A stretch of 64,000 nucleotides of DNA from Thermoprotei archaeon (GTDB taxonomy: Archaea; Thermoproteota; Thermoprotei_A; Sulfolobales; Acidilobaceae): the NCBI GenBank assembly GCA_029335875.2, contig JARJMZ020000004.1, positions 22,649 to 86,648 of the forward strand, given 5' to 3'. Made by a program: the position numbers and the translations under genes. Of the stretch, positions 9,193-12,129 are shown piece after piece. Under the pieces are notes generated by a model that worked only from the letters and a program-made list of their open reading frames with translations, did no database searches and was not told where the DNA came from. Position 1 is the stretch's first letter. Every line of letters begins with the position of its first letter.

Positions 9193-10896
9193 TTAGGGGT
9201 GTATGGGGGTTATGGGGCTTAAACCTCTCAGGTAATAGATTTCTATGAGGGCCCCGGAGTATGCTATGATAGTTAATATTATTGCAGCCACTATTATTAT
9301 GCGGATGTTGTCTAGTATTGTTGCTGGACCGGGCTTATGGGGGTTCAACATGATGAGTGTAGGCTGAGTTAACGGTATTCTAGCTCCGCTGGCTAGCGAG
9401 CCGAAGAATTGGATTAGGAACACTAGGCCTCCAACGGCGAATATAATGGCGCCTATAGCAGCTATTTGCATTGGTAGGATCCATTCTGAGGGTATGCTTC
9501 CCCCGTAAGTTACTATGCTGGTCCTCCTAGGAGATCCTGCGAGCCCGGCTGTATAGTAGCCTATGCTGAAAATCATCATGCCCACAAACCATAATATGGG
9601 AACTGCTAGACTAATGTTTCTGAGTATTACGTTCCTTCCATAGAGGTCTCTTATCAGTAGGTACGTGTAAGCCATATACGTGAGGACTACTGCTGTACCT
9701 ACTGTAGTGTGGAAGTGCCCTACAATCCATGTAGTGTTGTGAACCACGTTGTTCAACTGGTAGCTGGCGTTTATAATCCCGGTTATGCCTCCATTGCCGA
9801 ATGTTATAAAAGCGAGTATGAGCCCGGCGAACACGGGATCTCTCCAGGGTTGTTTGAAGAGCCACCCTAAGAGGCCGTTCCCTCCCCTAGCTCTCCCAGC
9901 CCTCTCCATAGTGGCTATTATGTTGAAAGCTGTGAGCATGCTGGGAGAGGCTACTATGAGGGTTAGAACGGTTTGAAGGTATTTGAAGTAGGGGTTTATT
10001 CCAGGGTCTACTAGCTGATGGTGTAGCCCGACGGGGGTTGAGACTAGTATGAAGATGATGAAGGCGATTTTAGCCATGGCCTCGCTGAATAGGGGCACCC
10101 CCAGAACCTTAGGCACATAATAGTACCATATGGTTATGGCTGGGATTAGCCAGAAGTATACTAGGGCGTGGCCGAACCACCAGAAGAACAGCCTAGACTC
10201 TAAAGCGTCAACACTCCAGCCCAGGAGGCTTGCGGGCACATGGTTCTTAAGGACTATGAAAACTAAAGGTATAGTAGCCATTATCCATACTATGGAGGAG
10301 GGCTAACCCTGGGGTTGCCATCCCAGTACCCTTCTTCGGCATACTGACAGCTTTCACTCTAAATATGAGATGAAAACCCCGGCTGCGAAAACCCAGCTAC
10401 CTAGAACTAGCAGGGCAGCCCCAACATAGAATAGCGGGCTAGCTACTAGGGGTAGGTAGAAAGTGTAGAGCACGTTAGCCCACCCGAGTATTATAGCTAT
10501 GGCGGCCAACACTGTCCCAATAACCATCATGGCCAGGCTTATGTTTAAAGTCTGGGGCTTAATGTTGACCCCTAACACTCTAGGCGTTAAATAGGCTGAG
10601 AAACCAACAATATAGAATGTTGTTAGGACTATAGCCAGGAGGACTCAGTGGGCTGTTAAGCCCCTATAGTATAGTTCATGGGAACTTCTACCTATACCCA
10701 GCCCGGCTACGTACTCGTAGAGGTTAGGCCAGTATGGCGTCCTCGATATAACCTGGAGAACTCCAAATATTCCTCCGAGGAGGAAAGCTGTAAAAGCTAA
10801 AACTATAGTTATCCTAGCGTACCAGTCCTCCTTCACAGTATAAACCCTAGCCTCCAACTCACCCACCTCCAGCCATATGAGTGGAAGCCCTCTCAA
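9193..10896 (-). pseudogene. heme-copper oxidase subunit I, B (ba3) family, interrupted by three in-frame stop codons
   Basis: The three track ORFs (10645..10896, 10354..10578, 9193..10281) lie in one frame of 568 codons. They are separated only by TGA 10645-10647, TGA 10354-10356 and TAG 10303-10305. All metal ligands are present: LTAH, WWFGHALVYFW, GLHHQL and VGHFH. It is collinear with Thermus ba3 subunit I as I recall it. Confidence 0.8.
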
Positions 10897-11380
10897 TAAC
10901 GAGCTTAGAATACATTAACTGGTGGCCTATGCCGCAATACTCGGTGCATATCACTAGAAACTCTCCTTTAGCAGCCTTAGGGGGCTCCCAGACGAACTCA
11001 GCCACATAGCCTGGCAGCACCATAATATTAACGCTTGTACCCACGATAGACAGCCCGTGTATAACATCCTGGGAGTAAACCCTGAAAGTCACCCTGCTAG
11101 GGTCTTTCAAAACTATCTCCCTAGGAATAAACACGAACTGCCTCGCCTCAATAGTGACCTCGTAAATCCCGGGGCCTACCTCTCTAACCCCCGGCTCTAA
11201 ACTTATACCAGCCTTCCTAGCCTCCTCTAAAGTATAAGCTTCACAAGTCGGGTTGAGACCCCTCGCAAACCCGTAATAGGCCATTGAAGCGGATAGCCCC
11301 ACGACAACGGCCGCTATCAACAGGACCCAAATATATTCAAATACGGCTTCACGGGACTCCATAGAACCAGCCCCCTCCAA
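10859..11380 (-). CDS. heme-copper oxidase subunit II (CuA)
   Basis: One N-terminal TM helix plus a cupredoxin domain with the CuA ligands VIHG...ICTEYCGIGHQLM. The probable start is ATG 11362 (MESREAV). Confidence 0.85.
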   Translation of the reverse strand: MEGAGSMESREAVFEYIWVLLIAAVVVGLSASMAYYGFARGLNPTCEAYTLEEARKAGISLEPGVREVGPGIYEVTIEARQFVFIPREIVLKDPSRVTFRVYSQDVIHGLSIVGTSVNIMVLPGYVAEFVWEPPKAAKGEFLVICTEYCGIGHQLMYSKLVIERASTHMAGGG

Positions 11381-11480
11381 TGAGCTTTACCAGGACATAG
11401 AGCCATGTCAGCACTAGAAGGGCAGCTCACACTATTAGTAGCAATAGCGTAGTCCTCGGAGGCTGCATCTTAGAAGCCAT
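11349..11480 (-). pseudogene. possible small single-TM oxidase subunit (ba3 IIa-like) with an in-frame TGA
   Basis: Manual translation from ATG 11480: MASKMQPPRTTLLLLIV*AALLVLTWLYVLVKLIGGGWFYGVP. The TGA is at 11427-11429. Position directly upstream of subunit II and the single hydrophobic helix recall Thermus subunit IIa. This is a weak call. Confidence 0.25.
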
Positions 11481-11574
11481 GATACCACCCCATACTCCAC
11501 AGTAAGGGATTCTCTCTAGAAGCTATATATTTTTAGTTGTATATTCTAGTTAAAGAATCTCTTAAAAAATAATA

Positions 11575-12129
11575 TTAAGTGGGTCTCCTTGAAAGATAGA
11601 AAGCTATAGCAACTAGGATAAGAACTATTATGGCCGCAGCTACAGCTGCTAGGATAAAGTTGACGCCTTTCTCTTCAGCTGGGGGTGTTGCAGGCGTTGT
11701 TACTGGCGGGGGTGTGGGGGTGGGCGTTGGTGTTGTTGGTGTTGCTCCTATGCCTAGGAGTGATGCTAGATAGTCCTCTACTACTTTAACATCTTCCCTC
11801 TTCTTCCCTGAGAGTGTGGACATTAAGTTGAATAGCTCATCTCAAGTTTTGGGCTCTCCATAGCCTCTAGCTTTAACCTCATTAGTGGTCTCGGCTCTCA
11901 CAAAATCATCTAAACTGGTATATTTTCCTGAAGCTGCTTTCCAGCGGGTTACAATTCCATCCCAAGTTTTAGCTATAGCACCATTATGGCAGGCAATACA
12001 CCCCAATTTTTCAAAAGCGCTTTTAGCTTGAGCTTCAGTAGGCTGGCCTATAACTGTTAGAGAAGCTAAGGCCACAGCCAAGATTAGGGCCGCCGTTAAA
12101 GTTAAGACTGTTAAACCCTTCAACCCCAA
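11575..12129 (-). pseudogene. membrane-anchored monoheme c-type cytochrome interrupted by one in-frame TGA
   Basis: ORFs 11842..12129 (signal peptide, CIACH heme motif) and 11575..11823 are in the same frame. They are joined through TGA 11842-11844. The downstream part supplies the class-I cytochrome c C-terminal helix (NLMST...VEDYLASL), a Thr/Pro linker and a TM anchor. Confidence 0.7.

Follow-up and report, generated by a model that had tools for sequence, protein, structure and literature searches.

The ba3 oxidase of Thermus thermophilus (1EHK/1XME), a B-family haem-copper oxidase with a mini-subunit IIa and cytochrome c552 as its electron donor, is the best solved relative of an enzyme encoded on the minus strand of a 64,000-nt stretch of contig JARJMZ020000004.1 (assembly GCA_029335875.2, positions 22,649 to 86,648; hereafter the window). 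The host is an uncultured hyperthermophilic crenarchaeon (genome G000) whose genus is tagged "Sulfolobales / Desulfurococcaceae archaeon" in public records of metagenome-assembled genomes (MAGs). Four co-directional genes at window positions 9193-12129 encode a cytochrome c, a IIa-like peptide, and subunits II and I of the oxidase (coxII and coxI), and all of them except coxII are interrupted. The comparisons reported here suggest that this locus very probably records a recent, strain-specific pseudogenisation of the cytochrome c / ba3 respiratory branch, with the lesions fixed in the assembly.

As read from its genes, the locus is an operon for a B-family (ba3-type) haem-copper oxidase together with its own electron donor cytochrome c. 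The intact allele of CoxI matches Pfam COX1 (PF00115, E 1e-78) over its whole length and is similar end-to-end to Thermus ba3 subunit I (1EHK, E 1e-98), whereas the best aa3 (A-family) chain reaches 7e-11 and the best cbb3 (C-family) chain 1e-7; because the ba3 chains score so far above the A- and C-family chains, CoxI is assigned to the B-family. As in the Thermus enzyme, CoxI retains the six canonical His ligands (two for the low-spin haem, one for the high-spin haem, and three for CuB) together with the cross-link Tyr (H70, H230, Y234, H279, H280, H381, and H383), and all of them, including the helix-VI H-x3-Y pair, are invariant in an alignment of eight sequences. Subunit II likewise bears the CuA motif H...CTEYCGIGHQLM. 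The first-pass annotation of this stretch, made from its letters alone, had described subunit II as intact and every metal ligand as preserved, which is borne out; its length of 568 codons for subunit I should read 554, counted from a TTG start at 10857.

The two small genes of the operon also have counterparts in Thermus, where a one-helix mini-subunit precedes subunit II and a class-I-like mono-haem cytochrome c is encoded alongside. A possible IIa-like mini-subunit had been suspected here, and the 43-aa gene at 11480..11349 proves real: its peptide ...LWAALLVLAWLYVL..LIGGGWFYGVP is kept across the loci L013, L014, L043-L051, and L004 and is conserved in all genus-level homologues; by position, size, and topology it is a putative match to Thermus IIa. 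The cytochrome c, 168 aa in its intact allele as called from 12081 (conspecific protein P0005), gives a weak match to a structure in the PDB, that of Aquifex cytochrome c555 (E 6e-7), and its gene is kept in genus homologues. Different from Thermus, the host is an archaeon, the cytochrome c is membrane-anchored by a Thr/Pro linker and belongs to the same operon, no haem A synthase CtaA is detected in the genome, and the operon appears dead in this strain. CtaA/COX15 (PF02628) was undetectable in seven of the eight genus genomes, even in those with an intact ba3-type oxidase, and only a fragment was found in the eighth, G005; the high-spin haem of the binuclear centre is thus probably not haem A made by CtaA.

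All five in-frame stops listed by the first-pass annotation were confirmed: on the minus strand, codons 10645-47, 10354-56, 11842-44, and 11427-29 read TGA and codon 10303-05 reads TAG. That annotation took the cluster to be broken by in-frame stops only, with no visible frameshift; however, two of the five stops stem from a single 64-nt inversion, and the set reduces to four independent operon lesions, namely three point nonsense mutations and the inversion (Table 1). Each of the three point mutations breaks a codon that the orthologues conserve as a sense codon. The comparison with orthologues proposed earlier for recovering the ancestral codons was run, and Trp80, Trp18, and Gly71 are sense codons in both the conspecific and the sister sequences; GGA in the orthologues also upholds the remark that the first TGA of coxI replaces the Gly of LTAHG. 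Trp80 of the cytochrome c is conserved in the genus-level homologues that have the gene. Inspection by eye only found no common sequence motif around the three point nonsense sites of the kind expected from methylation-linked base-calling error.

Table 1. Genes, lesions, and repeat of the oxidase locus, in window coordinates, followed by frameshifts at other loci of the pathway, in contig coordinates of genome G000.
Feature	Position	Strand	Description
Membrane-anchored mono-haem cytochrome c	11575..12129	-	CIACH motif, Thr/Pro linker, C-terminal transmembrane helix; broken
Premature TGA, cytochrome c	11842..11844	-	Trp80 TGG>TGA; derived in this lineage; L068 and G007 have TGG
Subunit IIa-like 43-aa single-helix mini-gene	11349..11480	-	overlaps coxII start; broken; intact call on L068
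Premature TGA, IIa	11427..11429	-	Trp18 TGG>TGA; derived in this lineage
coxII, 167 aa, CuA site	10859..11362	-	Pfam COX2; intact; genuine TGA end at 10859-61
coxI, subunit I, B-family (ba3-type) haem-copper oxidase	9193..10857	-	554 codons, TTG start; broken by one nonsense mutation and one inversion
Premature TGA, coxI	10645..10647	-	Gly71 of LTAHG, GGA>TGA (G>T transversion); derived in this lineage
64-nt in-place inversion in coxI	10293..10356		100% identical to reverse complement of intact allele
Dispersed ~200-nt non-coding repeat	8930..9140 (within 8880-9192)		adjoins coxI downstream; not an operon lesion
CcmC-like	C1:~53742		+2 "AC" inside WGSFWTWD motif
CcmE-like	C1:~52769		-1 in C run
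Rieske [2Fe-2S] protein upstream of cytochrome b	C3:~500-1000 (locus L150)		-1 and +1 in G runs, compensating length
SCO1/SenC-like	C12:~20478		+1 homopolymer indel relative to G007
PCuAC-like	C12:~19910		-1 homopolymer indel relative to G007

The inversion came to light in alignments with the sister genomes G007 and G003, in which the stretch between the second TGA and the TAG could not be aligned and was of equal length; reverse-complementing it restored the match, and its boundaries were scanned against G007. It agrees at 64 of 64 nucleotides with the corresponding stretch, once reverse-complemented, on two conspecific contigs (L068:3801-3864 and L069:1161-1224), with no change in length, and consists of a 60-nt core (10295-10354) flanked by 2-nt TG/CA ends that read the same in either orientation. 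The flip creates TGA 10354-56 at its border and TAG 10303-05 inside, and exchanges WRRANPGVAIPVPFFGILTAF, some 20 residues that in the ba3 alignment span the helix IV-V loop and the beginning of helix V, for an unrelated sequence while keeping the downstream frame. Across the assemblies compared, the flipped form occurs in this genome only; both conspecific contigs, like all further copies found in genomes of relatives and in metagenomes, keep the ancestral orientation.

Short-range template switching can yield a pure in-place inversion as one of its outcomes (Löytynoja & Goldman 2017, PMC5453318), and the coxI event resembles such cases in that a short piece of sequence gives way to its exact reverse complement, leaving the length unchanged, and appears as a dense cluster of substitutions in an ordinary alignment. 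It differs in being on the long side at 64 nt and in lacking a pre-existing inverted repeat: besides the 2-nt TG/CA ends, no flanking inverted repeat of 7 nt or more was found at its boundaries, and the segment folds no better than shuffled sequence (z = -0.37). The inversion may have arisen by a replication template switch, or by breakage and rejoining at the 2-nt microhomology. Short template-switch mutations, for which a four-point model exists, were reportedly treated by Ripley in 1982; in the literature consulted, the mechanism is not described for Crenarchaeota.

That the decay is recent is supported by two conspecific contigs in the Logan assemblies, SRR24762752_8441 (L068, 5069 bp) and SRR32700093_1438 (L069, 3025 bp), which are about 99.6% identical to the window. 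With the inversion set aside, 19 of the 5069 positions of L068 differ from the window, and the two contigs agree with each other wherever either differs from the window, except at the divergent end of L069. Both carry a full-length coxI, and L068 additionally a full-length cytochrome c (168 aa) and IIa (43 aa); an exact-sequence look-up found their CoxII identical to that of the window (protein P0002). Run SRR32700093 is a vent-water metatranscriptome from a boiling spring at Chumathang, Ladakh (bioRxiv 10.64898/2026.05.19.726215), which indicates that the intact allele is transcribed in nature. For run SRR24762752, a literature search by accession traced no publication. The strain heterogeneity that the first-pass annotation had offered as one possible explanation is thus real at the species level, with intact alleles in other runs. 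The broken protein fragments occur in the NCBI record only. A scan of metagenome contigs for independent assemblies of this strain returned only relatives at 77% identity or less, and exact look-ups of the HerA and peptidase A24 of the window, the CcmA of the genome, and a neighbouring 376-aa protein returned no match.

The orthologues of the sister genomes are uninterrupted in both G007 (87% amino-acid identity) and G003 (76%). G007 has the intact state at every operon lesion, and this outgroup polarisation indicates that the lesions are derived in the lineage of the window. Polarised in this way, the operon changes of that lineage comprise three nonsense, two missense, and two synonymous substitutions plus the inversion, versus six base changes in the other lineage, none of them disruptive.

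The damage extends beyond the operon. Following Pfam matches through eight genomes of the genus, we located the other loci of the pathway and found six frameshifts elsewhere in G000, hitting genes for CcmC-like, CcmE-like, Rieske, SCO1-like, and PCuAC-like proteins. A cytochrome c maturation cluster of System-I type (G000:C1:52620-54106; locus L152:1620-3112) carries ccmA and ccmB divergent from the ccmC-like and ccmE-like genes. The CcmE-like protein is not recognised by Pfam, and its assignment is inferred from a CxxxY motif and its position; its C-terminal motif SPCKxSY is the archaeal CxxxY variant. A conspecific contig, L153, which matches at 99.57% identity along 7.5 kb, has both the CcmC-like and the CcmE-like gene intact, and no indels occur in the entire comparison besides the two that break these genes in G000. 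The SCO1-like and PCuAC-like copper chaperone genes lie at G000:C12:19696-20937, 1.7-3 kb before window position 1. CoxII, cytochrome b (595 aa), CcmA, CcmB, CcmF, and a cytochrome bd oxidase (G000:C27:165552-167051) remain formally intact, and cytochrome bd is present and uninterrupted in seven of the eight genus genomes.

A genome-wide survey places these lesions in context. The survey used tblastn with 1058 coding-score-filtered open reading frames (ORFs) from 1.18 Mb of G007 against the whole of G000, giving 314,000 aligned codons at a mean identity of 86%; it replaced an earlier codon-score scan for in-frame stops, whose 140 candidates were mostly adjacent genes or antisense ORFs. Outside the pathway, about four internal stops and roughly a dozen frame changes were found, some of them probably artefacts of the comparison, and because the survey missed both Rieske frameshifts the count of other broken genes is a rough figure. 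On this count, eight of 13 pathway genes are broken, compared with no more than 15 of some 1045 others (p = 1.6e-11 by Fisher's test), a contrast that is far too large for an assembly-quality effect.

The internal stops encountered outside the pathway comprise a TGA at a Trp codon in an 811-aa BNR-repeat protein (C29:76940), a TAG at a Trp codon in an ABC permease (C23:28774), a TAG at a Leu codon in a PF04143 sulphur-transport protein (C37:27889), and a weaker, unverified case, a possible TGA at a Trp codon in a methyltransferase-like ORF (C34:59694). At C37:24568, a Sua5/YrdC-like frame runs on in frame past the TAA of the upstream gene for a substrate-binding protein and offers no ATG, GTG, or TTG for 74 codons, which could mean that the start is unusual, that the frame is left over from a fusion, or that one gene has been mis-split.

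Across the eight genomes, Pfam matches to cox1, Cytochrom_C_asm (PF01578), and Cytochrome_B (PF00033) co-occur in G000, G003, G005, and G007, whereas G001, G004, and G006 lack all three, and a cox1 fragment is all that is left in G002. G005 also contains a decaying operon (L004, G005:C2:36979-41079), in which coxI has an in-frame deletion of roughly 24 codons, one TAA (in FFWWFGH), and altered ligand-neighbour residues (GHIHTT), with two further TAA in cytochrome c and one TAG in cytochrome b. The state of the pathway in sister species ranges from intact, through independently decaying, to absent. Subunit I of a genome from the same GTDB family (G020) is 51% identical, which suggests that the family was ancestrally capable of haem-copper respiration. 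The coxI deletion of G005 overlaps the left edge of the G000 inversion, and two independent rearrangements there may hint at a fragile stretch.

We consider recent pseudogenisation by far the best account of these observations because conspecifics at 99.6% identity are intact, the lesions are derived, and the damage also reaches unlinked genes of the pathway. The whole cytochrome-c-dependent branch would have been recently released from selection and would now be turning into pseudogenes through about ten separate lesions, four in the operon and six frameshifts in assembly factors and the Rieske gene. In a low-oxygen niche in which cytochrome bd remains, the cause may be that selection has relaxed, or that it acts against a complex that is costly or of no use; the stops would then be plain stops, and no functional oxidase would be made. 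Very recent decay of aerobic respiration had been put forward in the first-pass annotation. Its first half holds, given the intact conspecifics, but aerobic respiration as a whole is an overstatement, since the intact cytochrome bd oxidase indicates that not all oxygen use is lost. The same annotation had been puzzled by a pattern of stops with no frameshift; with six frameshifts at other pathway loci and an inversion behind two of the stops, the puzzle dissolves, and the stops-only appearance of the operon is a local accident. The process is ordinary gene decay, caught unusually early.

Several observations weigh against this interpretation. Five of the six frameshifts lie in homopolymer runs, where sequencing errors also occur, although the concentration of frameshifts in one pathway argues against sequencing error. 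The lesions are known from a single NCBI assembly consensus; that they share one haplotype, or form the majority state in the source sample, is a presumption. Of the seven point changes that the window lineage has in the operon, three are nonsense, where random point mutations in its four genes would give a stop in 3-4% of cases (post hoc P about 0.001, or about 0.01 with all 13 operon differences included), an excess that pure neutral drift does not predict. Finally, divergence from the intact allele is 0.45% in the operon, no higher than in its housekeeping flanks (0.24-0.43%). The data would fit a module that lost constraint around the time of the strain split, perhaps with some selection to silence the leftovers.

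That last element can be extended into adaptive loss, in which inactivation was itself favoured by the cost or toxicity of half-assembled haem/copper complexes, or of reactive oxygen species, in a micro-oxic vent, and in which, after the first hit, each further knock-out of subunits or assembly factors was selected. It would account for the nonsense excess just described, for as many as ten lesions at ~0.4% divergence from intact conspecifics, and for the repeated, independent loss of the same module in the genus. However, the test is post hoc on a region chosen for its stops, the indel-to-SNP (single-nucleotide polymorphism) and lesion counts lie within a few-fold of what neutrality predicts for a module free of constraint since the split, and a single knock-out should suffice, so that later hits would need a separate benefit. 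We therefore regard adaptive loss as unlikely. Still more speculative is the idea that the multiple hits are the footprint of selection in one ecotype living beside a conspecific ecotype whose intact operon is transcribed in the boiling vent, an oxic/anoxic niche split at the strain level in a hyperthermophilic archaeon, with the inversion as the first documented crenarchaeal short template-switch or end-joining event; we consider this rather doubtful.

A more sceptical explanation is that no real cell carries all the lesions and that they were introduced into the assembly or consensus by a strain mixture or error-prone reads. The genome is indeed a 37-contig draft, 95% complete, the intact haplotype was recovered in both Logan assemblies while the broken fragments are confined to the NCBI record, and the homopolymer context of five of the six indels is as noted above. 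Random errors, however, would not hit eight of 13 genes of one pathway while sparing about 99% of the others, and the lesions are spread over four separate stretches on three contigs. An exact 64-nt inversion with 2-nt end homology is not an ambiguity of a graph assembler, the only indels in the 7.5-kb conspecific comparison are the two that break genes, and the sister species G005 decays the same pathway independently. An artefact of this kind thus seems very unlikely, and pseudogenisation remains the preferred reading.

Read-through, recoding, and editing, which the first-pass annotation had raised because of the unusual stops-only pattern, would leave the genes functional, with TGA and TAG read through or recoded (as Trp, as Sec, or by near-cognate suppression), corrected in the RNA, or used as regulatory stops. 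Two of the TGA codons do sit at Trp positions, and UGA is the stop most easily misread by tRNA-Trp. Nevertheless, ARAGORN, run with and without the intron search, detected no tRNA with anticodon UCA, CUA, or UUA (suppressor, Sec, or Pyl) in the genome. TGA ends 317 of 1089 long ORFs (29%); it is a true terminator at 549-551 and at 4549-4551, as had been pointed out, and also closes coxII inside the operon itself. A code with reassigned stops also fits poorly with only about four in-frame stops outside the pathway in the 314,000 aligned codons. At the third TGA the residue lost is a Gly adjacent to the haem-b His ligand, the inversion swaps out some 20 residues in a transmembrane region under any code, and no codon reassignment rescues the frameshifts in the maturation genes.

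Editing has one further point of support, since the metatranscriptome contig reads G where the DNA has A at 11427 (11842 lies outside the contig), a difference that alone would mimic A-to-I editing. However, the Gly71 lesion is a T versus G rather than an A versus G difference, and the RNA contig departs from the window at about 10 further sites, some of them transversions, and does not have the inversion, which indicates another strain rather than an edited transcript. RNA editing was rejected, as it could not undo the inversion, the T/G difference, or the frameshifts. Continued function by any of these routes is accordingly scarcely credible.

A programmed intragenic inversion, in which the 64-nt segment would be a reversible switch turning coxI on and off, might be suggested by the exactness of the flip, its 60-nt core (a multiple of three) with the downstream frame kept, and the overlapping deletion in G005, but it is extremely improbable given flanking inverted repeats of at most 2 nt and an unremarkable fold, on which grounds an inverton was rejected, and given that the flipped orientation encodes stops and no alternative protein, that every other copy found and both conspecific contigs are in the ancestral orientation, and that, apart from the flip, coxI is hit by a nonsense mutation and its partner genes are damaged too.

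Around the operon, an Rfam scan of the window detected two tRNAs only and nothing in the 310-nt gap after coxI, which is occupied by a dispersed repeat with at least 40 copies in the genome. An inverted partner of this repeat lies ~7 kb away (window ~1826-2046), and the repeat marks a synteny breakpoint, as the DNA that G007 has downstream of coxI matches window ~2176-3823, oriented the other way round; the ~7 kb between the two copies thus appears to be inverted relative to G007. Inside the same repeat, ~75 nt after coxI, the conspecific contig L069 leaves the window sequence, and its positions 2400-3025 are 100% identical to G000:C27:182019-182644. This join could stem from a rearrangement between strains that the repeat mediated, or else from a chimera in the Logan assembly.

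The locus adds a new, dead member to a known enzyme family and represents a known evolutionary process, of which it offers an early and complete snapshot. For annotation, it illustrates that in-frame stops beside seemingly perfect ligands should not be read as recoding, and that two of five stops can be the shadow of a small inversion invisible at the protein level. For the metabolic inference from MAGs, automated pipelines would probably take the intact subunit II and the large fragment of subunit I as grounds to score "cytochrome c oxidase present". With respect to the evolution of respiration, structural subunits, haem-attachment genes, copper chaperones, and the Rieske protein appear to go together at about 0.4% divergence, and the genus shows every stage from intact to absent. 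Aeropyrum pernix, which belongs to the same GTDB family, lives as an obligate aerobe and has intact oxidases, whereas in the present genus species with intact and with decaying oxidase genes stand beside oxidase-free ones. The process itself resembles the reductive pseudogenisation of a dispensable pathway, as in the multi-hit decay of Mycobacterium leprae or of recently host-restricted bacteria, in which functionally linked genes at different loci likewise suffer multiple independent hits while relatives stay intact and the coding sequence is otherwise barely diverged; different from those genomes, the decay described here is restricted to one module rather than genome-wide, and it is seen at ~0.4% divergence in a free-living hyperthermophilic archaeon.

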